Of a stretch of 64,000 nt of DNA, positions 1 to 12,355 are shown one piece after another (positions within the stretch are counted from its first letter, which is position 1; each line of letters opens with the position of its first letter). Source of the DNA: a virus; IMG/VR virus record IMGVR_UViG_3300026488_000015, positions 32,001 to 96,000 of that record; one strand, 5' to 3'. Both the position numbers and the translations under genes were made by a program. Under the pieces are notes generated by a model, which saw only the letters and a program-made list of their open reading frames with translations, ran no database searches and had not been told where the DNA came from.

Positions 1-359
1 CAGCTGAATAAGAACATATTATCGTATATTATTTTTGTTTCATTTATCTTGTTTACGGCACCATCAGTAAATAGAATATTGTTACAAAGCACCACGAGGG
101 GTTGCCTACTGAAAACAATTTTATCTGTTATTTGTTTAATTTCGTTATCAGTAAAATTGTATTTGCTTTTGATAGCTACTACATATTCTTCTAATGTTAT
201 TTTCTCTGCATTTAATATGCAAACATTGAAGTGGTCTTTCAGTAGCCAAAAGTACTCGATGACTTCAAAAGTGTGACCACATATACCTTGGTCGTTGTTT
301 TTGTGCCAAGAATATGTCAATACTAAATCGTATTGTTTCAGATTTATTATCTTGCTCAT
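1..359 (-). CDS. GT-B-like protein, paralog 3 (partial, runs off window edge; not in ORF track)
   Basis: Manual translation MSKIINLKQYDLVLTYSWHKNNDQGICGHTFEVIEYFWLLKD...IKSKYN..., open to base 1; GHTFEVIEYF and KSKYN match GTLFYAMEYF/SAKYN and GILFYCIEHF/KEKYD of the next two ORFs. Confidence 0.6.
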   Translation of the reverse strand, partial: MSKIINLKQYDLVLTYSWHKNNDQGICGHTFEVIEYFWLLKDHFNVCILNAEKITLEEYVVAIKSKYNFTDNEIKQITDKIVFSRQPLVVLCNNILFTDGAVNKINETKIIYDNMFLFS

Positions 360-367
360 CTAGTTCC

Positions 368-1147
368 TTAATACGCTATAAAATCTTTTGTCACCTTGTA
401 CTCAGCATCTATTTGGAAGATACTAGCACCCATTTCCATACAAGCTGTATACCGTTCATTGACTGAATCGTTTGTGTCTTCAGCATTGAGGACAACGAGG
501 CTATTACCAAAATAGAATGCTTCAGGAATTATTCTGTTATTTCGTTCAAGATGCCTAGTGTGGTAGTAGATTATTTCTTTAAAATTGAAAATATCCAAAT
601 CTTTATTGAAATCTTTGTACACGACATCATATTTTGCTACTTCTTCTATTGTGCTTTTATCGATAGAACCAATACCAAGAGCTAGATGAGAACAAAAGGT
701 CTTATCTAGGTGTGGTGTCTTAGGTTTCATAAATTGAAAACCTATTTTAAATCGTTCTTTAATATTAAACTTTTGATAATCGTAAAAACCATATACAGAA
801 TCTTGCTCTCTAGCATTATGGTCACCATCATTAGAATACAGAAAAATTTTATCTATCTTCTGTGTAAAGTTTTGTATTTTATTATAAGTAAAGGTATCGA
901 GTACTAATGCCTTTTTTGTTACACTCTTAAGCAAATCGATAGGCTTTATCTTTACTACATTATCAAGATTTATTATATCATACTTTTCCTTAATAATACC
1001 TTTAATGACATCTATATCACCATCAAAAATGACGCATAACTGTACATCTTCGTACTTGGAAATATATAAGAAATGTTCTATACAGTAAAATAATATACCA
1101 GTCATAATGAGGTTTGGGTTTACATAGATTATAATTTTTGAATTCAT
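368..1147 (-). CDS. Putative glycosyltransferase-like (GT-B) protein, paralog 2
   Basis: C-terminal ERNNRIIPEAFYFG is an EX7E-type motif; clear paralog of 1149-1868. Confidence 0.5.
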   Translation of the reverse strand: MNSKIIIYVNPNLIMTGILFYCIEHFLYISKYEDVQLCVIFDGDIDVIKGIIKEKYDIINLDNVVKIKPIDLLKSVTKKALVLDTFTYNKIQNFTQKIDKIFLYSNDGDHNAREQDSVYGFYDYQKFNIKERFKIGFQFMKPKTPHLDKTFCSHLALGIGSIDKSTIEEVAKYDVVYKDFNKDLDIFNFKEIIYYHTRHLERNNRIIPEAFYFGNSLVVLNAEDTNDSVNERYTACMEMGASIFQIDAEYKVTKDFIAY

Positions 1148-1148
1148 A

Positions 1149-1868
1149 CTAATCCTTAAGGAAATCTTGTATCATTGAATCGCTAGCATCTAAGATGAAT
1201 TCTTCTATCGGGGATTGTAACCTATCTTGAATGCTATCATCAAAATCTAGTTTATTGTCTATTATTAGTTCTTTGTTGAAATATCTTGCTTCAATAACAA
1301 ATCTATTATTAGTATCAAAACCATTATGTACATACTTCCAAGTTTTGTATTCCATCAAATTCATAAAGGTATTAGGTTTTTTTGCGTCCTCTCCATTTAT
1401 TTTATGCATATCTAAAGATGAACGAAAAACCTCATATTTTTCTTCATATTTCTTATGGTATTTTAGCCCTAATTTTAGTCGCTCTCTTCTGTTGAATTTT
1501 TGATAATTATAATACCCGTAAGTGTTTGTAGATACCTCATTATTACCGTTTTCAGAATACAAGAAAATACTATATCTGATTAATGGTTTACATTTAATAT
1601 AGGTATTGGTATCTAATATCAAAACTTTGTCGTTTATTATTTTAAGTAGGTTTGTGTAATTTGAAAATATTATGAATTCGTTTAGTTTTTTATCGTAGTT
1701 ATACTTGGCACTAAACACTTCCATAATTTTACTGAAAGTGGCTTCATCAGTTCTCAATATAAGTTGAGTAGGTTCTATCTCGTTAAGAACCAAAAAGTAC
1801 TCCATAGCATAGAAAAGTGTACCGTTAATGATTTTTTTAGGCATTACATAATATAGTACACTTTTCAC
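1149..1868 (-). CDS. Putative glycosyltransferase-like (GT-B) protein, paralog 1
   Basis: DTNNRFVIEARYFNKELII (D/EX7E-like); shares LDT, YGYY.YQKFN..ER.K.G blocks with 368-1147. Confidence 0.5.
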   Translation of the reverse strand: MKSVLYYVMPKKIINGTLFYAMEYFLVLNEIEPTQLILRTDEATFSKIMEVFSAKYNYDKKLNEFIIFSNYTNLLKIINDKVLILDTNTYIKCKPLIRYSIFLYSENGNNEVSTNTYGYYNYQKFNRRERLKLGLKYHKKYEEKYEVFRSSLDMHKINGEDAKKPNTFMNLMEYKTWKYVHNGFDTNNRFVIEARYFNKELIIDNKLDFDDSIQDRLQSPIEEFILDASDSMIQDFLKD

Positions 1869-1876
1869 AAAAACTC

Positions 1877-2485
1877 TTATCTATTCATTTTATCGTAAGC
1901 AATATAAAAATCACCGAGAATTTTATCAACCTCTTCTGTATCTTTTGCATTAATGATTTTCTTCACAAAATCAGCACACATATTCCCAAAGTCAATAGAT
2001 GTAGTTACTTTATCTAAGAGTATTAAGTAGCTTTCTAGTTTTTCTATGATTGCTTCATCATCTTTTTCAATAATTTCAATATATTTTTCTTCACGATTAC
2101 TATTAGTGATTACAAACCCTTCGGCAGTAAGTTCATTGTTTAAAACAGTAAAAGAAACAATATCTAAAGATGTCATATTTGCCATATTATATGACATCTT
2201 CTTATTTACTCTCATCATATTAATTTTCTTATATACTTCAAATTCATCTACTGCTTCATCAGAAATATTAATATCCCCTGGAAGTGCTTCATCAGTTATC
2301 ATTTCTTTATTAATAGTGATGGTCTTCCCTTCTGAAAGACCATCACTAATCAACTGATAACTATTATAAGAAAGCTTAATAACTTTATCCTCTCTATTTG
2401 CTAAACCGTCAAACGAACTTTTAGTAGTACCAGTCACTAAATAATGAGTACCTCTATCTTCTACTATTGCTAATTCAAATATCAT
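1877..2485 (-). CDS. Hypothetical protein, possibly a fibre chaperone
   Basis: 202-aa ORF with SD; C-terminal IINAKDTEEVDKI resembles ISTAVDVEEVLSY of the DUF4376-like ORF at 21331. Confidence 0.4.
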   Translation of the reverse strand: MIFELAIVEDRGTHYLVTGTTKSSFDGLANREDKVIKLSYNSYQLISDGLSEGKTITINKEMITDEALPGDINISDEAVDEFEVYKKINMMRVNKKMSYNMANMTSLDIVSFTVLNNELTAEGFVITNSNREEKYIEIIEKDDEAIIEKLESYLILLDKVTTSIDFGNMCADFVKKIINAKDTEEVDKILGDFYIAYDKMNR

Positions 2486-2509
2486 TTTAAATCTCCTTTA
2501 ATTTTATTT

Positions 2510-3010
2510 TTATGCATAGTTACAACCACAATTACCGTGACAAGTACACACGCTGTGGCCGCCGCAGTCACTATTACATATACAATCAGTTCTAAGCGAA
2601 TTGTATAATGCTAACATATCTGATGCTAATTTACTTGCATAAACAATGCTACCAGCAGAGACGGCACCAGTCGAACCGTGCCCTGTGCCGTTTAAATCAA
2701 CAATCAATTTATTAAAATCGTTTGCATAAACAGTATCACCTACAGCGATTCCCGCTGTAGCAGTTGTACTAAAATTATAGTTACCATTCTGATTCCATCT
2801 AGCAATTTCATTAATTGTGTTTGCTCTTAATAATTCTAAATCTGATGCGTTAATTATATTCCCAGCAGTTGCATTTGATAATGCAACTACTCTATTAGAA
2901 GCACAAGATGCTCTATTATACGAGCAACTATCAGTAGTACAATTACTAGTACAATGCGAAGGAGTACACCACCCCGTAGATGTTGCCGCCGTCCCTGAAC
3001 CTACTGCCAT
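2510..3010 (-). CDS. Cys-rich protein, candidate radical SAM substrate or small fibre protein
   Basis: 12 Cys in two terminal clusters around three G..I/V.A.D/K..L repeats; directly downstream of a rSAM gene. Confidence 0.65.
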   Translation of the reverse strand: MAVGSGTAATSTGWCTPSHCTSNCTTDSCSYNRASCASNRVVALSNATAGNIINASDLELLRANTINEIARWNQNGNYNFSTTATAGIAVGDTVYANDFNKLIVDLNGTGHGSTGAVSAGSIVYASKLASDMLALYNSLRTDCICNSDCGGHSVCTCHGNCGCNYA

Positions 3011-3011
3011 A

Positions 3012-4130
3012 TTATTTTCCTCCTAAAAGTTGCGAGAGAGCTCTATCTACTTTTCCAAACGCTTGATAGTAACCACATAAACCGTGAACTTGGTTATCTA
3101 ACCATTTATCTTCGTAAGAATCCTTTTGTGAAGCAGCATAAGATGAAGTAGGACAAACAAAACAAGTAGTTGCTACACAACTTTTGCATTGCTCGTTTGT
3201 CTTAGCTATCATCTTACTAAACTTCTCTCTATCTAACTTATTTATATCACCGTCAAGCGATAAAAGTTTGTGGTTCTCTTTATCATCAAGATATAAAGCA
3301 CCGTGGCACGGGTAGAAATTACCATCTGTGTCAAGTATAGTCATATTCTTACCAGAAGAACAAGTAAATCTAGTATCATCTCCTCTGTACCAACTGAATA
3401 GCATATGACCAAATTCTGAATAAAAGTCTAATTCTAGTGCACTTATTTCTCTAATTGCTTGTTCAAAATAAGGCAAATAAGTATTAGGGTCTTGAAGTTT
3501 TGTATGGTAATCAAGAGTAGGTGAATATCTAACATAGGTCGTTTCGCTATCATATTTTCTTTTTAAATCTCTAAATTCTTTCCATACAGTAACCATATTA
3601 TGCACCTCAGATAAAGGGAGTGTGCTTTTTAGGCTTAATGATTTTAGTCCTGCTTTACTCAACCAATCGAAAGTTTTAAGTACTTTATCGGCTGTTGATT
3701 CGCCTTTATGGTCTATACGGAATTTATCGTTAATTATTCTACCATCATACGATACTTGTACTCGTAGCTTAGAAGCATCAACACTATTAATGAATTTTTC
3801 CATAGTGCTTTGGTTAAAAGCATTAGTATATAAGTGATAATCAATATTATCATAATCGTGGAAATAGTTCATAAGCTCAGTCATAACATAGTTATTAAGA
3901 GTAGGTTCTCCACCCCAAAAATCTACACCAAGAGTATCATATTCTGCTTTAAACCAATCAGACGCTAAGGTTTCTTTAATTTTTTCTATATATTGAGGTA
4001 TATTTTGGTTTACTTGTTTATTATCAACAGCTTTTTCACCTTCAAAACAATATGTACAAGCCATATCGCAAGTCGTTACTGTGGTAATTTCAAAATTGAA
4101 CCCTCCTTTTGTCTGTATTCTATCACTCAT
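3012..4130 (-). CDS. Radical SAM/SPASM-domain protein
   Basis: CDMACTYC, WGGEPTL, YTN, VSYDG, SPASM CSSG...DGNFYPCH...CKSC...C..C...C. Confidence 0.93.
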   Translation of the reverse strand: MSDRIQTKGGFNFEITTVTTCDMACTYCFEGEKAVDNKQVNQNIPQYIEKIKETLASDWFKAEYDTLGVDFWGGEPTLNNYVMTELMNYFHDYDNIDYHLYTNAFNQSTMEKFINSVDASKLRVQVSYDGRIINDKFRIDHKGESTADKVLKTFDWLSKAGLKSLSLKSTLPLSEVHNMVTVWKEFRDLKRKYDSETTYVRYSPTLDYHTKLQDPNTYLPYFEQAIREISALELDFYSEFGHMLFSWYRGDDTRFTCSSGKNMTILDTDGNFYPCHGALYLDDKENHKLLSLDGDINKLDREKFSKMIAKTNEQCKSCVATTCFVCPTSSYAASQKDSYEDKWLDNQVHGLCGYYQAFGKVDRALSQLLGGK

Positions 4131-4402
4131 TACATTTTCCCTTTCATTGATAGAATATCATCTATTATGGTTTGTAATTCAGCTTCTTCCATTTTATCTG
4201 CTTCAAGTTTTATCTCTTCTAGCATTTTATTACCCATATCCGCCAATATTGCACTCATTTCAGTAGATACTGGTAGCAACTCTACTGATGCCTCCATCAG
4301 TTTTGTAGAAGCCGCAAATAGATGAGCGTTTCTATCATTCTTAGATAAGATAATTTTCTCTACTCTATTAGCAGAATTCTCGTTTAGTGTTTTATTAATC
4401 AT
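4130..4402 (-). CDS. Hypothetical helical protein between the two rSAM genes
   Basis: 90-aa ORF, stop overlaps start of 3012-4130, SD AAGGA. Confidence 0.6.
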   Translation of the reverse strand: MINKTLNENSANRVEKIILSKNDRNAHLFAASTKLMEASVELLPVSTEMSAILADMGNKMLEEIKLEADKMEEAELQTIIDDILSMKGKM

Positions 4403-4411
4403 TATGTTCCT

Positions 4412-5368
4412 TTAAACCCAGCTAACTAAATCAGCAATGAGGTCTTTATTTAATTTATTTATATTGCCTACAAGTATACCGTAGATAAACACATACATTT
4501 CGCATAGATATTCTATCGGTTTTTGGTTTTCTAGCTGTTGTATCAGACAACCTTTCTCGCAATATTGGTTTACGCTACAACTCTTACAGAAATCTTGTAT
4601 TGTTTCTGAATTTACTTGCGAATTAAAAATATCTTCTTTATCAAAATATCTGTAACAACTAAAAAATTTATTATCGTGAAATGCTAGAACAGTATCCCCA
4701 GCACCACAATCTTTTGGTGAGTATCCTTTTTTATGGTATCTAAGTATATGAGTTAAAAAATGAATGAAAAATGCTGGTATAGTATTTGTTGATGTAGCAT
4801 AATCCATTAATCCAGAAATATCTTCTTTGGCTTGCTCTATATTATCTTTATGCCATATACCGATATCCCTGACAATAGTAATCCCAGGATTAACTCCAAA
4901 CATATTGTACAATAATTTATGATTATCTTTCAACCCAAACATTGTACCATTCCACATAGCGTGTATTTTCAAATCATCGATAGTTCTAATAAGCTCTATT
5001 AAAGCCGGATGGAAGTCTTTTCCTCGCTCTGATTGCCAAATACCATCGTGAGATACAGAAACAGTCACTTTATTGTCGTTGAATATTTTGATTATGCCCG
5101 GTGCTAGTAGCAACCCATTAGTCATAATATTAGTTTTGAACCCATTACTATTACTGTACTCTATGAATTGTATGACTAAAGGCATTTGCATTAAAGGTTC
5201 TCCGCCCATAATATCAAAAATGTAATTTTCGTTTTCCTCGTATATATCTTCAAATTCTTTCTTAAATGTATCGAATGATATTTTTTCCGTTGATTTTTTG
5301 TCTATTATATAACAGTAAGAGCAGTCTAAATTGCACCCTTCTGATAATATCAGCGATATATGCTTCAT
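4412..5368 (-). CDS. Radical SAM/SPASM-domain protein
   Basis: CNLDCSYC, MGGEPL, TNG, VSHDG, CGAG...SCYRY...CKSC...C..GC. Confidence 0.93.
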   Translation of the reverse strand: MKHISLILSEGCNLDCSYCYIIDKKSTEKISFDTFKKEFEDIYEENENYIFDIMGGEPLMQMPLVIQFIEYSNSNGFKTNIMTNGLLLAPGIIKIFNDNKVTVSVSHDGIWQSERGKDFHPALIELIRTIDDLKIHAMWNGTMFGLKDNHKLLYNMFGVNPGITIVRDIGIWHKDNIEQAKEDISGLMDYATSTNTIPAFFIHFLTHILRYHKKGYSPKDCGAGDTVLAFHDNKFFSCYRYFDKEDIFNSQVNSETIQDFCKSCSVNQYCEKGCLIQQLENQKPIEYLCEMYVFIYGILVGNINKLNKDLIADLVSWV

Positions 5369-5464: not shown

Positions 5465-8400
5465 CTAAACTTTTACTGTTACTGTTCCATCGATTGAATC
5501 TTCTAAACAAATTCCGATTAATCTTTTTGATTCGTTGAAGTCGTAATCATCAACACCATAACCTTTACCATCTTTTCCAGCTAGCAAATATTGACCTTTC
5601 TTGGCTTCTGTTACAAAACAAGGAATCTTTCCTTTAAGTGCTATTGCTAAGTAAAGTTCATTTTCTGCTATCTCATCAGTATTATTCATTAGTAACGCAG
5701 GGTCAGTAGAAACAACTCCTGCTAGTTTCATACCTTCTTCGTACATAGTGATTTCATTATCCCCGCCGATACCCATTACAGTACCTGGAACCTGAACTTC
5801 ATCACTAAAGTAGTTTTCTGCTACATCGGCATATCTAGCAGATGTAGCAGTTAAGTAAGCTTTACCGTTTGAACCGTTTAAGAATATTCTTGCATCACCA
5901 TCAGAAGCAACATACATACCCCAACCCGCACCAGTTTGAGAACCGATGAACGAAGCAGATGCATCAGTAAAACCTATACCGTACATATTACCTAATGATG
6001 CATCTGAAGGGTTATAACTAGAACCGATAGTATAAATTGGGTTAGATTTAAGACTATTACCACCAACATTATTATAAGAACCTTCTAAGTGACCAGTGTG
6101 GTGATTATGTCTAGCATAAGTAACAGCTTTTACTCTATTTGAGAATGTAGCATACTCATCAACTTGTAAAGTACCTTCGATTTTGGTATTTTTACCATTG
6201 TCGCTTAATGTTACAACACCTCTAATTCTTGTAGTATCAGTCGTAGCGTTACCAAGAGTTGTATTACCTGAAACAGAAAGATTCGATTGTACATATAATG
6301 AACCACTATTAAGTGACATTCTAGTTATATCTGCTGAACTACCTGATTTAGTTACCCAAGCAAAGTTTTCGTTCCCGTTATCTCCAGTTCTAAATTCTAG
6401 TCTATTATTCGATGCAGAATCAGTAGTCGTAATGAACTTGATACTAGCTGTATCAGTTACAGAACTCCAATAAATACCTTCACCTGATGAGTTGAATTGG
6501 ACTGTACCTTCTACTGTTACACCAGAACTATTAGTAGCTAGTTTTTCTACGCCATTATTGTATAAATGAACACCAGCATTTTGGTCACACCAAATAGCGT
6601 TTTCTGAAGAACTATTTCTAAGTATTAAATCTCCACCAGTACTTTGGATATATAAGTTACCAGTACCTTGTTCTTCAATATAAGAGTGGCTACCTGAGTG
6701 GTAAATATCTAAATCAGAACTGTTACCTAAGTATAAGTGCTTATTATCATCGAATCTCATATCAGCTTGTACAGTTGTAGTGGCTTTAATTGTTAAAGCA
6801 TCACCCGTTGAGTCACCTAGTGTAGTATCGTTATATACTAATAAAGAAGTTAAATTAATATGATTCATTCTTGAAGTACCAGCAAAGTTACCGTAGTAAC
6901 CCGTAATATCTGAATCATAATAAATTGGTGCATAAACTGAAGTACCAACATATAATTTCTTAGCTATAGCAACACCACCTCTGAATCTTGCTCCTGCAAC
7001 AGTAGTACTACTTGCATCTAAAATACTTAAAAAGTCTGTATTATTATTTGTGTAAAATATTCTCATTGCTTCATAAGCAGGTATTCCAGTCGTTGTACTA
7101 AGTGAACCCATACCGATGTGACCGTAACCATCGCCAGTATAAGTCATACTTATAGAAGCACCAGCACTTTCACCTAATGTGATACCTGCTGATTGCTCGA
7201 TTGTACCTTCACTTGAAGAATCTAATGTAATCCAAGGTCTATTTTTTGTAATATTAATATCACCTTTAGTATCAAGTGCACCATCTCCATATACTCTGAA
7301 TCTAGTATTAGCTGATGTAGTTAGAGAAGCTGATGTATTAGCTCTTAAATCCATAAGAACATCTGAACCAGATACCCCCTTACCTTCTCCATCCATTTCT
7401 AGTACGATTCCGTAAGAATCGCTAACATCTACTTTATGTGAGATATAAAGTGAAGGACTTGCAGATGCACTAACATCGCTAATTGTCATTTTACCATTAA
7501 CAGTAGCACCAGTACTAGTAGTTTCAAATCTTTGAGAACCGTTGTAGTATAAATGAACACCTTCGTTTTGGTCACACCAGATTGCATTCTCTGTCGTTGA
7601 TGTTCTAAGATATAAATCACCTGAAGTACTTCTAATGTACATACTTCCAGTACCTTGGTCTTCAATGAAAGAATTTGAACCATCGTGGTAGATGTCTAAA
7701 TCTTTACCTGAACCGAAGTATAAGTGGTCGTTATCAGTAAATCTCATATCAGCTGTAACAGTTGTAGTAGCATTAATCGTTAATGTATCACTTGTACTAT
7801 TTCCAAGAATATTATTACCATTAAATGTTCCATTACCCGTTACTGTAAGATTACTACCAAATGATACTGATTGAGCAACATCTAATGAACCATTAATAAC
7901 AGTAGCTCTACCAGTGTCACTTAAAGTAACAGTACCTCTGATTCTTGTAATGTCTGCTGAACTATCACCTAGTGTAGTTGTTCCTAGAACATATAAAGAA
8001 CTTTTTAACTTAGTTGCTTCATCTACATCTAATGTACCTTCAACTCTCGTTAATTTACCATTATCAGATAATGTAACAGTACCTCTAATTCTTGTAGTAT
8101 CAGTCACAGCATTACCAAGAGTCGTGTTACCTAGAACATATAGTGTGTTGTTGAGCGTTGTCGCGCCTGTCACTGCTAGAGTACTTAAAAGTCTTGTCGC
8201 GCCCGTTACATCTAATGTCTTAGCGAAATCTACATCACCACCAACATTTAGTCTTCTAGCGATTCCTACTCCACCCTTAATAGCTAATGAACCACTATTA
8301 TAATTTGAACTATCCAAAGTACTTCTGAATTCTAAAGTTCCTTCAGTTGAACCATCTTGGACATCGATATAGCTAGTATTATTACCATCGATACCTTGTT

Positions 8401-11400
8401 TGAAGTAAACTAACCCACCATCTTGCGACATTTCGATAGCAACATTATCGCTCTCATCTACATTATCTGTGTCGCTTTGTAATCTGATAACCAAATCACC
8501 TTTTGCTTTCACATCATATAAGAAATTATCTGTAATGATTGTTTCTGTGTAATTACCACTTGAAGTGATTGTACTTACAATATCATTAACTGTTGTAGTG
8601 CTAACAATATCACCTGATACTGCAGTAGCTCTAGTAATATTTGTAGCATTAATAGTTTCACTAATATTAACAGCATCTAATAGGTATCGGAAATCATCGT
8701 GTGCATCGTATGTTACTTCGATGTCATCATCAGGTGATGTCATACTCCAAATAAAGTTACCGTGACTATCTTCAGCAACTAATTCATTGCTTTTGTTATC
8801 TCTAAGAGTTTTCGTCCAAACTCTCCATACACCAGCAATCTTTTGTCTTACCCAAATATTGTTAGAAGCATCATTCATTGCATAAGCAACTTGTGTACCA
8901 TAAGTATCACTATTTGTGTGCATCATCGTTACAACGAATGCCCAAGCACCTAAATCATCTGGTTCATTTGTAACTGAACCTTTATCGATATTGTAAACAC
9001 TATTTCTAACGATAGCATCTAAATTACCAGTATATGTTTCGTGTCTTTTGTTCTCTTTGTAACCATCTAAATTCCACTTACTAAGAAGCTCTTCTTGTGT
9101 ACCAGAAATTGTTCTAATAGGTGTTTCATCGTTAAATTCTTTAAGACCAGAGATTAATTCGTGCTCATCAGTCGTAACCATATGAGAATCAATCTCAATA
9201 AGACCATCAACTAAATTCTGTGCTACAAATCTTTCACTAAAATCATCACCTGAATCTGTTGTTTCTTGTAATTTTGAGATTCTACCAATTTCTGCATCGT
9301 GAATATTATGTGCTCTAACTAAATCTTCAGCAGGCGTATTATCATCGTAATATGTCGTAGTCATTGTAGCTAAATCACCGATTTCAAAATCGTGTTCATT
9401 AATACTAGAAACAACATCGATACCCGTTGTTGTTAGTTCATAAATGTTACCAATCTCTAAATCGTGTACATTTAGTGCAGTGATAATATCTTTAGCAATC
9501 TCACCCTGATTAGGGTCAATATCTTCTGTATGCTGTACTGTTAATTCTCTGTAATCACCCTTTTCAACTTCATTGATATTAATTGATTTAACTAAAGAAT
9601 CACCATTAACACCTTCTTGGAAGGCTGGAGAATACATAATAATATCTTCTTTGTCGCCAACATCGATTTCAAGATTGTGTAATCTTAATGAGTTTTCAGC
9701 AGAAACATCTACATATCCGTAATACTCACGGAATTCAATAATCCAACCTTCTTCCATTGTATCAACAAAACGAACACGACGCTCATCTACTTCAATATAA
9801 TCATCATTTTCTCTAAGAATAAGACCGTTTAAGTAAACATCTAATGATTTTCTATCATTTGTATATTTTCTTTGATTGGGTACAGTAATAATCTCACCTT
9901 TCTCTACATCTTCAGGAACCTCGTAATACTCTCTCATACGACCAGTGCTCATTCCAGAGATACCATCTTCATCATATAAGATGCCGTAAGAATAAAGGTA
10001 TGCTGCATCGTGCTCAGGTCTTAATGCTGTATCATTTCTAACAAATCTGAACCACATATTATCTTGTGCAGGGTCTGTTATGATATGCTGTTGATGCTTA
10101 CCATCGTACCAAATACCGTCTGTTCCATCGCTAGAATCGAATGAGTATTGAACATCATAATAAGCACCGTTATTGTTATCATTGATATAAGGGTAAACCA
10201 TATCGTAAAGGTCTGTGTTATCAGGACCAAAGATACTTTCGTTAGTACCAATAATATCACCTTCATTTTGAGCTAAGTATGCAGTTTCTCTTGCAACATA
10301 AACAACTGAACCAGTCGTAAGTGCTGTATAAGGTCTTTCAAAAGTTTCTACATAACATTTACTGAAAGGTGATTGCTGTAAGAAAAACTCATATTCAAGA
10401 GCTTCAGGAATAACACCATCACTTGCTGGATTATCAATATCTATTGCGAATAAAGTATCTGTAACTGCGATACCTGCTTTAACTGCTCCTGGGAATTTAT
10501 CTAATGTGATTCCACCTTTAACAGTAGCATCGATGTAGTAAATGCTACCTACTTCAAATCTTTCACCGACACCAAACATTGAATCAAGTCTAGCAGGAGT
10601 GAATTCTAGTGCTCCAGCAAAAATAATGTAATGCTGTAGTCCCATATTCATATAGAATCCTACTGCGTTTCCAGTTTCTGAACCATCACTAAGTGCTTTT
10701 TCATATAAACCAGTATCTAATTCTTTGTAAACAATATCAAAGTTCACAATATCACCGATTTCAGAACTAACAACTGGAAGACTGAAGAATGTAGCAGAAG
10801 CTTTATTTCTATCTACTGAAACGATTAAGTGTTGAGCATCAACAGCAATACCAACAGAAACAGAAACTTCTGTGTATTCTAGTTGTACTTTACCTTTGTC
10901 TAATTCATCTGTGCTTAAATAGTATTGTTTACCTGGAACTAAAGTCGTATTTGTAACACGAACATAACCATCATAAACGATATAATGTCTTGAATCGTAA
11001 ATCTTGTACATACCAGCAATAACTTCTTCATTAACACCAGAGTTAAAACCTTTCTCGTATTTTCCAGTATCTACATCAAAGAAAACGAAATCAGAATCAG
11101 AAATTGTTCCCACTTTACTTGAAGCGAACTCATAAACACCATTTTCGTGATATTCGTGTCTTTGAATGTCTAAAAGAAGTACACCTGCATCGATACCTCT
11201 ACCAATTTTCATACTTTGTGGTGGAGTTAAATCATCGTATGTTTTATATACGCCTTCTACTGTATCAGAAAGATAATAATCTTGTCCTGCTACGATACCT
11301 GATAATTCGACTAAACCAGCATAAACAATGTAATGTTTACCTTCATATAATTTGTATATACCAACAACTTCAGAAGCATCATCTGTATCAGATATAGCTT

Positions 11401-12355
11401 TTGAATAGATAGCTCCGTTTTTGTAAACGATGTCACCATCAGCTAATGTTGCTACTTCTGTACTATGTACTTGAAATAATGATTTTTCAGGAATAACTCT
11501 TTCGCTAATATTAACAACGATGTAATCTGTGCTTACTGCTCTACCAATTTTGATAGCGTTAGGTGCTTCATAACCATTGTAGTCGAATTTCTTGTAATCA
11601 CCTGAAACTGAATCAGATAAAAAGTAATCTTTTCCTACTTCTAAATCGTTATTAACAACTTTAACAAGACCATCATAAACGATGTAATGCTTAGTACCGT
11701 AAGATTTATAGAAACCTACAAGTCTATTTTCATCATCTTCAGAATTCTTTGCTTTCTCGTACTTTGTACCAGTGAAGTAAACTAAATCAGAATCATCGAT
11801 GTCGCCTTTTTGATTATCAGGGAATTCATAAGAACCTTGTTCAATAACTCTGTCTTCATCAACTTCTACTAAAATATGTGTAGGTGTTAGTGCTTTACCT
11901 ATTCTGATAGCACCTGGAAAAGGTTTATCATCAGAAAAACTCATAACTCCACCTAAAGTAGTGTCGCTTAAGTATTGGAATTGACCAACATTAAAGTTTG
12001 AACCTTCAATTTCTACTGCACCAGCAAAGATTAAGTACCAAGAACCTTCGTAGTTCTTAACTACACCAAAAGGTTTGTCTTTTCTGTAAGTATTGTTTGT
12101 TTCTGTATTGAAGATTGCTTTACCGTAGATGTATTCTCCGGCAACAAGTGGATTTTCGTAACGATATACTACATCTCCATCTTCTACTGAATTAATACCA
12201 CCTTCAAGGTCGATGTCAGCTAATGGAATTGTACTATTTGTGTACTCATAGTTATCAAGTTTAGTTACTAGTTGTTTAAGTGGACGATTAGCTACTTCAG
12301 GAGTTCCTCTTTCGCTTTCGTGTATCCAGTCTATTTCATTATATAAAGTTCCCAT
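5465..12355 (-). CDS. Giant mosaic tail fibre / receptor-binding protein (2296 aa)
   Basis: Five N-terminal ~115-aa G.V...G..YYLS repeats, a pyocin-knob-like segment (GTQVAY...IWVRQ..GVW..W), duplicated beta-rich blocks, C-terminal ARYADVAENY...GVVSTDPA.LMN...ALKGKIPC chaperone-type domain. Confidence 0.85.
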   Translation of the reverse strand: MGTLYNEIDWIHESERGTPEVANRPLKQLVTKLDNYEYTNSTIPLADIDLEGGINSVEDGDVVYRYENPLVAGEYIYGKAIFNTETNNTYRKDKPFGVVKNYEGSWYLIFAGAVEIEGSNFNVGQFQYLSDTTLGGVMSFSDDKPFPGAIRIGKALTPTHILVEVDEDRVIEQGSYEFPDNQKGDIDDSDLVYFTGTKYEKAKNSEDDENRLVGFYKSYGTKHYIVYDGLVKVVNNDLEVGKDYFLSDSVSGDYKKFDYNGYEAPNAIKIGRAVSTDYIVVNISERVIPEKSLFQVHSTEVATLADGDIVYKNGAIYSKAISDTDDASEVVGIYKLYEGKHYIVYAGLVELSGIVAGQDYYLSDTVEGVYKTYDDLTPPQSMKIGRGIDAGVLLLDIQRHEYHENGVYEFASSKVGTISDSDFVFFDVDTGKYEKGFNSGVNEEVIAGMYKIYDSRHYIVYDGYVRVTNTTLVPGKQYYLSTDELDKGKVQLEYTEVSVSVGIAVDAQHLIVSVDRNKASATFFSLPVVSSEIGDIVNFDIVYKELDTGLYEKALSDGSETGNAVGFYMNMGLQHYIIFAGALEFTPARLDSMFGVGERFEVGSIYYIDATVKGGITLDKFPGAVKAGIAVTDTLFAIDIDNPASDGVIPEALEYEFFLQQSPFSKCYVETFERPYTALTTGSVVYVARETAYLAQNEGDIIGTNESIFGPDNTDLYDMVYPYINDNNNGAYYDVQYSFDSSDGTDGIWYDGKHQQHIITDPAQDNMWFRFVRNDTALRPEHDAAYLYSYGILYDEDGISGMSTGRMREYYEVPEDVEKGEIITVPNQRKYTNDRKSLDVYLNGLILRENDDYIEVDERRVRFVDTMEEGWIIEFREYYGYVDVSAENSLRLHNLEIDVGDKEDIIMYSPAFQEGVNGDSLVKSININEVEKGDYRELTVQHTEDIDPNQGEIAKDIITALNVHDLEIGNIYELTTTGIDVVSSINEHDFEIGDLATMTTTYYDDNTPAEDLVRAHNIHDAEIGRISKLQETTDSGDDFSERFVAQNLVDGLIEIDSHMVTTDEHELISGLKEFNDETPIRTISGTQEELLSKWNLDGYKENKRHETYTGNLDAIVRNSVYNIDKGSVTNEPDDLGAWAFVVTMMHTNSDTYGTQVAYAMNDASNNIWVRQKIAGVWRVWTKTLRDNKSNELVAEDSHGNFIWSMTSPDDDIEVTYDAHDDFRYLLDAVNISETINATNITRATAVSGDIVSTTTVNDIVSTITSSGNYTETIITDNFLYDVKAKGDLVIRLQSDTDNVDESDNVAIEMSQDGGLVYFKQGIDGNNTSYIDVQDGSTEGTLEFRSTLDSSNYNSGSLAIKGGVGIARRLNVGGDVDFAKTLDVTGATRLLSTLAVTGATTLNNTLYVLGNTTLGNAVTDTTRIRGTVTLSDNGKLTRVEGTLDVDEATKLKSSLYVLGTTTLGDSSADITRIRGTVTLSDTGRATVINGSLDVAQSVSFGSNLTVTGNGTFNGNNILGNSTSDTLTINATTTVTADMRFTDNDHLYFGSGKDLDIYHDGSNSFIEDQGTGSMYIRSTSGDLYLRTSTTENAIWCDQNEGVHLYYNGSQRFETTSTGATVNGKMTISDVSASASPSLYISHKVDVSDSYGIVLEMDGEGKGVSGSDVLMDLRANTSASLTTSANTRFRVYGDGALDTKGDINITKNRPWITLDSSSEGTIEQSAGITLGESAGASISMTYTGDGYGHIGMGSLSTTTGIPAYEAMRIFYTNNNTDFLSILDASSTTVAGARFRGGVAIAKKLYVGTSVYAPIYYDSDITGYYGNFAGTSRMNHINLTSLLVYNDTTLGDSTGDALTIKATTTVQADMRFDDNKHLYLGNSSDLDIYHSGSHSYIEEQGTGNLYIQSTGGDLILRNSSSENAIWCDQNAGVHLYNNGVEKLATNSSGVTVEGTVQFNSSGEGIYWSSVTDTASIKFITTTDSASNNRLEFRTGDNGNENFAWVTKSGSSADITRMSLNSGSLYVQSNLSVSGNTTLGNATTDTTRIRGVVTLSDNGKNTKIEGTLQVDEYATFSNRVKAVTYARHNHHTGHLEGSYNNVGGNSLKSNPIYTIGSSYNPSDASLGNMYGIGFTDASASFIGSQTGAGWGMYVASDGDARIFLNGSNGKAYLTATSARYADVAENYFSDEVQVPGTVMGIGGDNEITMYEEGMKLAGVVSTDPALLMNNTDEIAENELYLAIALKGKIPCFVTEAKKGQYLLAGKDGKGYGVDDYDFNESKRLIGICLEDSIDGTVTVKV

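Follow-up and report, generated by a model that had tools for sequence, protein, structure and literature searches.

Whether the evenly spaced cysteines of a small phage-encoded protein mark it as a substrate of the radical-SAM (rSAM) enzymes encoded beside it, and which chemistry would then be placed on them, is the question raised by a locus of the virus record IMGVR_UViG_3300026488_000015. The window (the whole stretch of 64,000 nucleotides that was analyzed) contains a 166-aa open reading frame on the minus strand at 2510-3010, whose translation holds 12 Cys. An initial annotation, made from the sequence alone, had reported that eight of these Cys are followed by Asn or Asp at i+3 and two more by His, in two terminal clusters, and had proposed a new Cys-to-Asx(i+3) thioether pattern on a leaderless rSAM substrate.

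Gene organization and cysteine register

The minus-strand operon stands directly after a 2296-aa tail-fibre-like gene and has the order rSAM1, 90-aa acidic protein, rSAM2, Cys-rich gene, 202-aa protein, and tandem paralogues. The features discussed below are as follows:

4412..5368, minus strand: rSAM1, a radical-SAM enzyme of 318 aa with a probable SPASM domain, found in 14 of the 17 loci whose upstream sequence is long enough
4130..4402, minus strand: 90-aa acidic protein, helical by eye, located between the rSAM genes in most loci, with no family match
3012..4130, minus strand: rSAM2, a radical-SAM enzyme of 372 aa with a probable SPASM domain and without RRE, next upstream of the Cys-rich gene in every locus compared
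3019..3024, minus strand: AGGAGG ribosome-binding site of the Cys-rich gene, 8 nt 5' of its ATG and within the 3' end of rSAM2
2510..3010, minus strand: Cys-rich 166-aa protein, likely rSAM substrate, whose C-terminal end ...CGCNY-A coincides with the S74 cleavage-site point of relatives
2891..2968, minus strand: N-terminal cluster of five Cys (residues 15-40), with N/D at +3 of four
2588..2890, minus strand: Cys-free core, residues 41-141, three beta-alpha repeats, each with an I-x-A-x-D-x-x-L helix
2513..2587, minus strand: C-terminal Cys cluster made up of the hexads CICNSD / CGGHSV / CTCHGN / CGCNYA (four in residues 142-166)
1877..2485, minus strand: conserved 202-aa partner, N-terminus M-I-F-E-L-A-I-V-E-D-R-G, just downstream of the Cys-rich gene

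The Cys lie at positions 15, 20, 24, 29, 36, 143, 145, 149, 155, 157, 161, and 163, so that two terminal clusters (residues 15-36 and 143-163) hold every Cys of the protein. The residues at i+3 are, in order, S, N, D, N, and N in the first cluster and N, D, H, H, N, N, and A in the second, and this recount is identical to that of the initial annotation. The regularity lies beyond what shuffling produces: at least eight N/D at +3 arose by chance in a fraction of 6e-5 of 100,000 whole-protein shuffles, eight were reached in 0 of 100,000 within-cluster shuffles, and the shuffle probability was 2e-5 when any offset within +/-4 was permitted. At any offset from -5 to +5 other than +3, the N/D count is at most four. 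The last two motifs of the N-terminal cluster have the form C-x-x-N-R (CSYNR and CASNR), and no CxxC motif was found anywhere in the protein.

A word-indexed search returned 10 relatives of the Cys-rich protein, and a profile search of 1.84 billion representatives returned 171 at E <= 0.001, including 82 at E <= 1e-10. The gene is considered real because its ATG is preceded at 8 nt by AGGAGG and because of these 171 representative relatives; the position of AGGAGG inside the 3' end of rSAM2 suggests translational coupling. Pfam and NCBIfam searches of 109 family members gave S74 in six, plus chance matches, and no family model. A tblastn search of the 166-aa protein against 50,697 GenBank phages gave no match, and the sole DNA similarity to named phages was a 66-nt match to T4-like Campylobacter phages.

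The 2296-aa fibre-like protein (window 5465-12355, minus strand) has no Pfam match; by eye, its N-terminal third shows several repeats of ~110 aa, and its C-terminal end contains a ...YADVAENY... segment, presumably similar to the cleavage motif found in other chaperone domains of fibres. At the other end of the operon, window 3-1868 (minus strand) encodes three tandem paralogues, two of 239 aa and 259 aa and a third that the window edge truncates to 119 aa, none of which received a Pfam, PHROG-function, or NCBIfam assignment. In the 146.5-kb IMG/VR record, nine Radical_SAM matches lie within 13.5 kb (G000:C1:23849-37350), the right end of which corresponds to window 1-5368; seven of these matches are outside rSAM1 and rSAM2.

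Distribution and synteny of the cassette

The gene order was compared in 20 distinct loci: the window, seven loci obtained through exact-protein look-ups, one locus for Halobacteriovorax (two chromosomes taken together), and another 11 IMG/VR contigs, which a search with a degenerate DNA pattern for the hexad block had returned. In each of the 20, the gene directly upstream of the Cys-rich gene is an rSAM2 orthologue (29-78% identity); this count takes in an 832-aa fusion protein with hexads near its C-terminus. The idea that the Cys-rich protein is a candidate substrate beside an rSAM enzyme was therefore borne out as far as synteny goes, in that a PapB/CteB-like SPASM rSAM adjoins the gene in every locus compared. 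In loci with readable downstream sequence, the Cys-rich gene, or the separate S74 piece described below, is followed next by the ~200-aa partner, and the conserved block consists of rSAM2, the Cys-rich gene, and this partner, for which an Atlas search gave nothing usable (best TM <= 0.40).

The distribution of rSAM1 is looser, and was set against the N-terminal clusters to see whether each cluster may have an enzyme of its own, as the initial annotation had suggested. Together with the small protein it is found in the 14 of 17 loci mentioned above, and it co-occurs with N-terminal clusters of one to five Cys. In L002, the closest separate relative locus (20 kb), an N-terminal cluster of five Cys is retained, and neither the 9.5 kb upstream nor the 10 kb downstream contains an rSAM1. 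Judged from gene order and sequence, it is strongly supported that the 166-aa protein would be a dedicated partner of rSAM2, and likely that it is an rSAM substrate.

The whole island was also observed in a predatory bacterium, on the Halobacteriovorax sp. CON-3 chromosome (L010:5035-14710) and in L009; besides rSAM1, the small protein, rSAM2, the Cys-rich protein, the 202-aa partner, and the paralogues, it includes at least four more rSAM genes there. It adjoins an aroB/aroA-like fusion gene, and no obvious prophage genes were seen in 16.5 kb. A 174-aa gene upstream of this cassette was considered as a homologue of the C-terminus of the giant fibre of the window and was rejected (E = 1.2). 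CP220-type Campylobacter phages were likewise rejected as cassette carriers, since their rSAM2 homologue is 25% identical and has no Cys-rich neighbour. This homologue, a 389-aa SPASM rSAM of the CP220/CPt10 group (L011:4962-6131), is flanked by a 116-aa hypothetical gene and by a 1159-aa gene that carries the annotation 'endolysin', and the vicinity contains no Cys-rich gene. Many rSAM genes without assigned function have been known in the T4-like Campylobacter phages CP220/CPt10 since 2010 (PMC2853527).

Conservation of the +3 register

The exact C-terminal four-hexad array (C-x-C-N/H-x-D/N) was present in 129 of the 159 sequences in hand, with the following composition (n=129 for each hexad):

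H1: C-[IVL]-C-[N97 H20 D12]-x-[D108 N11]
H2: C-x-[C85]-[N105 H12]-x-[V87]
H3: C-x-C-[H66 N37 Y16 D6 F4]-x-[D68 N55]
H4: C-G-[C117]-[N96 H21]-Y123

Conservation at H1.6, H2.1, H2.4, H3.4, H3.6, and H4.4 is considered genuine because these positions had been left free by the search pattern. Among the 129 relatives, N/D/H occupies H1.6, H2.4, H3.6, and H4.4 in 91-95%, and H2.1 is Cys in all. Family-wide, N/D/H is thus found at +3 of six of the eight hexad Cys, the exceptions being C(H2.3), with Val at +3, and C(H4.3), with either the S74 Ser or the chain end. Owing to the hexad period, N/D also stands at -3 of the next Cys; +3 and -3 are therefore equivalent in the hexads, and the C-terminal cluster alone cannot separate CxxN from NxxC. 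This separation comes from the N-terminal clusters (188 Cys in 53 proteins; family consensus C-x-G-H-R ... C-x-x-N-R), in which N/D/H occurs at +3 in 64% (60 N, 51 H, and 9 D), compared with 6-22% at each other offset, 19% at -3, and a background of 17%. Since these clusters favour +3 over -3, C-x-x-(N/H/D) is regarded as the signature of both tails.

The +3 residue is not invariably Asx. Tyr or Phe occupies H3.4 in 20 of 129 relatives, Val is found at H2.6, Tyr follows at +3 in 14 further cases among the 188 N-terminal Cys, and His is the commonest +3 residue at several family positions. Part of this interchange may reflect mutational proximity, as NAY codons are common to N, H, D, and Y; besides, N, H, D, Y, and F all have a beta-methylene beside an sp2 group, which we infer would stabilise a C-beta radical. 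The alignment of homologs thus upholds the register suggested initially, i.e., the i+3 residue is conserved along with its Cys in both clusters, as a class N/H/D, whereas the strict Cys-to-Asx form has to be given up because N, H, and Y swap freely. In the same way, the CxxN reading holds for the N-terminal cluster but not as the sole reading of the C-terminal hexads, where N/D is also present at i-3. On one viral contig, two tandem Cys-rich paralogues were observed (L027:2470-2916 and the ORF just downstream), the second of which begins with M-A-G-D-Y-S-C-S-P-F-C-Y-S-Y.

An AF2 model based on a 109-sequence alignment placed about residues 35-145 at pLDDT > 90, as three beta-alpha repeats, and left both Cys tails unmodelled (pLDDT < 50). 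Foldseek of the core against PDB and BFVD gave nothing at E <= 0.001, a profile search of PDB sequences with the Cys-rich family gave nothing, and VIA-align wide gave no convincing PDB fold, its best Z of 6.6, to a helical domain, being inside the noise range of the tool.

Such tails could also be read as metal-thiolate sites (metallothionein-like, or Cys/His sites for Zn or Fe) or as disulfides, with the rSAM enzymes acting elsewhere or merely assisting, a plausible explanation that appears the less likely one on balance. CxC repeats, which also occur in metallothioneins, are present here, but CxxC is not. His is frequent at +3 (66 of 129 at H3.4; 51 His vs 60 Asn in the N-terminal clusters), yet Asn, a poor ligand, dominates this position at H1.4, H2.4, and H4.4, and Tyr/Phe is tolerated at H3.4. 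Some relatives lose the Cys and the N/H of hexad 2 together, which agrees with this reading; however, where Cys is lost it is replaced by Ala, Gly, or Ser and not by His or Asp. Unmodelled AF2 tails are usual for metal sites. Pfam and NCBIfam gave no metal-binding family signature in the Cys-rich protein family. The constant adjacency of the rSAM2 gene speaks against metal sites. In the HxH motifs of phage fibres the metal is held on the three-fold axis of the trimer, and metal sites of the present family would perhaps be arranged likewise. Disulfides are unlikely in a phage protein that is assembled in the cytoplasm.

Coupling to Peptidase_S74

Most relatives run on past ...CGCNY with SDxRLKxxIxx, which corresponds to position 1 of the Pfam Peptidase_S74 profile (PF13884), a domain that serves endosialidases and tail fibres as intramolecular chaperone and that the initial annotation does not mention; in the relative P0026 this domain scores 56.4 bits (cut-off 22), again from profile position 1. 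Among the 129 regular members, 34 continue for at least 50 more residues, 46 stop ~12 residues past the Ser, and 35 end at CGCNY (+0-1), as the copy of the window does. A short S74-like domain (67-88 aa) is fused in nine of 12 IMG/VR copies. No Peptidase_S74 was detected in the protein of the window, which ends CGCNYA, or in the whole 146.5-kb record.

Split forms were found as well. In L008:3263-4056 and L007:647-1440, the Cys-rich protein keeps the first ~12 residues of the domain (SDxRLKxxIxYC), and a 94-aa ORF of its own, with a 7-nt stop-codon overlap, encodes the S74 remainder (profile positions 18-53, 30.1 bits). In L002:7911-8192, a 93-aa S74 remainder lies two genes upstream of the Cys-rich gene. 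An A-rich run, CTTAAAAAAGAG, is located 15 nt before the stop in L008, and a programmed frameshift at this run is conceivable.

S74/ICA domains trimerise the upstream segment, normally a triple beta-helix stalk, after which a Ser-Lys dyad cuts before Ser to leave a kinetically stable trimer (PMC8326128). Because the hexad array stands directly before S74, it occupies the stalk position. Compared with these relatives, the protein of the window would correspond to an already-released mature chain; as this copy ends at the S74 cleavage point, the mature product is predicted to end with ...CGCNY. From the relatives and the gene position, this product is probably a trimeric, fibre-like virion accessory. 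A more far-reaching reading, that the family, carried by large phages and a few bacteria, forms a trimeric fibre or stalk with rSAM-stapled termini, maybe interchain links, and S74-driven assembly, is put forward as speculative.

The radical-SAM enzymes and the type of reaction

Both rSAM1 and rSAM2 contain the CX3CX2C radical-SAM motif, pass the cut-off of PF04055 (Radical_SAM; 36.3 and 49.0 bits vs 29.5), and show the SPASM-type Cys pattern C...G...C / Cx2Cx5Cx2-3C / C, with rSAM2 scoring 26.4 bits on TIGR04085 (SPASM; cut-off 27). PapB (NF047865) was the best NCBIfam match for both (rSAM2 84.9 and rSAM1 62 bits; equivalog cut-off of 340 not reached). The QhpD model, with a cut-off of 453, ranked second for rSAM1 at 59 bits and third for rSAM2 at 56 bits, and weaker matches included the SCIFF maturase, TIGR04115 (CXXX-repeat maturase; 44 and 50 bits, cut-off of 350 not reached), and, for rSAM2, TIGR04463 (CrpC-type; 29.3 bits, far under the cut-off of 525). 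TIGR03942 (anaerobic sulfatase maturase) aligned to both enzymes and over the full length of rSAM2 (48.8 bits; cut-off of 349 not reached). As every curated family cut-off is far above these scores, the reaction type rests on analogy.

Among solved structures, the closest is that of CteB (5WGG), a thioether-forming enzyme, which aligns from its residue 106 onward, past its RRE. No PqqD-like RRE was matched on the rSAM enzymes by Pfam or NCBIfam, and the radical-SAM core begins at about residue 10-20; given that CteB aligns only from residue 106, the phage enzymes are considered to be without RRE. The leaderless substrate proposed initially fits with this absence in rSAM2 and with the Cys clusters at both ends of the core.

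That the protein is an rSAM substrate undergoing a different chemistry or topology, such as sactionine formation at C-alpha, i-3 links of the NxxC type, interchain links, Cys-to-aromatic or Cys-to-His links, or formylglycine at C-x-x-x-R, is an improbable alternative as well. N/D at -3 in the hexads would suit i-3 links, but the N-terminal clusters prefer +3 over -3, and the Cys always precedes its acceptor in CrpA (PMC13692751). The S74 relationship implies three chains in register, which is compatible with interchain links, and H, Y, and F at +3 suit aromatic partners; on the other hand, ranthionine-forming enzymes are the best family and structure matches. Formylglycine formation would agree with the sulfatase maturase alignments of both enzymes and with the CSYNR and CASNR ends of the N-terminal cluster and their family consensus, but its target motif C/S-x-P/A-x-R needs Pro or Ala at position 3, where Tyr or Ser is found here.

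Modification of the Cys tails by other island enzymes (e.g., S-glycosylation by GT-like paralogues), or a merely operonic rSAM adjacency, is very unlikely: three tandem paralogues of unassigned family lie just downstream and one related locus has UDP-glucose dehydrogenase and PIG-L genes, but the paralogues are without any family assignment, the conserved block is confined to rSAM2, the Cys-rich gene, and the ~200-aa partner, and in L012 (a contig of only 3.6 kb) rSAM2 stands beside the Cys-rich gene without sugar genes. Independently of this, the tandem paralogues are kept downstream of the cassette in nearly all loci.

Proposed mechanism and implications

The explanation preferred here, with a probability of roughly 0.5, is that the Cys-rich protein is a folded, leaderless rSAM substrate with Cys-to-(i+3) thioether staples on its tails. 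Of the parts of this explanation, putative thioether chemistry on the Cys tails, by analogy with related enzymes, is given about even odds, and the residue at i+3 as the link acceptor is proposed tentatively. In a mechanism modelled on NxxcB, PapB, CteB, and CrpC, rSAM2 would bind the substrate via protein-protein contacts, perhaps helped by the small helical protein, and rSAM1 would probably do likewise. An auxiliary Fe-S cluster would hold a Cys thiolate while the residue three positions further downstream gives up H from a side-chain carbon, so that the thioether would close a 4-residue ring and repetition would give a ladder of small rings on both tails, which might stiffen them without disulfides in the reducing cytoplasm. 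In relatives, the S74 chaperone would trimerise the upstream segment and then cut itself off before the Ser of SDxRLK, and the thioether ladder together with S74-driven trimerisation may yield a rigid fibre-like product independent of disulfides.

Thioether stapling by rSAM enzymes is well known for short peptides, whereas its demonstration on whole proteins is recent (CrpA in 2026, after QhpC). The present system is conserved, mostly phage-borne, and missing from Pfam and NCBIfam, and its candidate substrate carries two Cys tails of different build that follow one simple rule, C-x-x-N/H/D. We know of no rSAM partnership for S74 proteins, and the tie between a candidate rSAM substrate and an S74 trimerising chaperone is without precedent. 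The cassette provides a clonable substrate-enzyme pair for the study of leaderless recognition and permissible link acceptors, and it offers a way into the question, dating from the CP220/CPt10 genomes, of why many rSAM genes are found in phages whose hosts are microaerophilic or anaerobic (PMC2853527). If the stapled-fibre reading is true, no earlier case of RiPP-type radical cross-linking would be known for a structural protein of a virus, and some of the unexplained rSAM sets in phages of low-oxygen habitats would gain a function.

Comparison with known systems

Classical RiPP systems consist of a leader and an RRE, and neither feature is present in the phage cassette. The CXXX-repeat target (PF27846), which was merely a weak Atlas lead (score 0.83), has a Cys at every fourth residue, whereas the spacing here alternates between 2 and 4 (hexad). 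Relatives of the Cys-rich protein resemble S74 fibres and spikes (endoNF, T5 pb1, and GA-1 gp12) in that their S74 domain starts from SDxRLK right after the repeat array and in that the gene lies beside tail-fibre genes. Such fibres normally have a triple beta-helix stalk where the relatives have hexads; unlike them, the Cys-rich family has a body of ~165 aa with Cys tails, and its S74 domain is short (~67 aa), often split, and absent in the window.

Several rSAM systems are closer in chemistry. The PapB/PapA (freyrasin) and CteB/SCIFF systems, which include the best NCBIfam (PapB) and structure (CteB 5WGG) matches of the phage enzymes, join Cys through a thioether to a carbon in the side chain of Asp or Thr; however, their substrates are short leader peptides read by an N-terminal RRE, and the PapA motif is CX3D (i+4). 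NxxcB from streptococci attaches Cys to the C-beta of Asn as a beta-thioether that spans two intervening residues, and acceptors other than Asn are tolerated (PMC9389541). NxxcA thus shares the two-residue spacing found here, with tolerance of Ala, Gln, and Asp as acceptors, but has the order N-x-x-C, with the acceptor upstream and a single ring in a short peptide. In the quinohemoprotein amine dehydrogenase gamma subunit (QhpC), the rSAM/SPASM enzyme QhpD places several Cys-Asp/Glu thioethers in an assembly subunit, with a different spacing, a leader that is removed, and an enzyme-cofactor context that is not viral.

The closest precedent is CrpA/CrpC from Methanococcus voltae (2026), in which CrpC puts Cys-to-(i+3) ranthionine links on the 29-kDa CrpA, a protein with repeated C-X-X-Q/D motifs (PMC13692751). 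These links are formed within CAGM, CAVD, CAGD, and CPLV, with the acceptor always after the Cys (PMC13692751). Both systems combine a SPASM rSAM with an adjacent Cys-rich protein instead of a short peptide, a small accessory protein, repeated C-X-X-(D/Q/...) units, and low AF confidence in the modified region (known in CrpA, candidate here). They differ in that CrpC is a TIGR04463 member with an RRE, and in that CrpA begins with a leader-like N-terminus and repeats every 17 residues, whereas the phage protein repeats as hexads, bears another Cys cluster at its N-terminus, and has a folded three-repeat core, S74 in relatives, and a phage context. The Cys-to-(i+3) pattern, which the initial annotation had taken to be new, is accordingly not new in kind, as CrpC already makes such links (PMC13692751), i.e., a SPASM rSAM cross-linking a Cys-rich protein at Cys-x-x-X is already known. 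A literature search returned no paper describing this family, its hexads, its two-tail layout, the S74 coupling, or the phage setting. What is new is the family itself, the hexad architecture, the two tails around a folded core, the coupling to S74 in fused, split, or lost form, the phage setting, and a cassette without RRE or leader.
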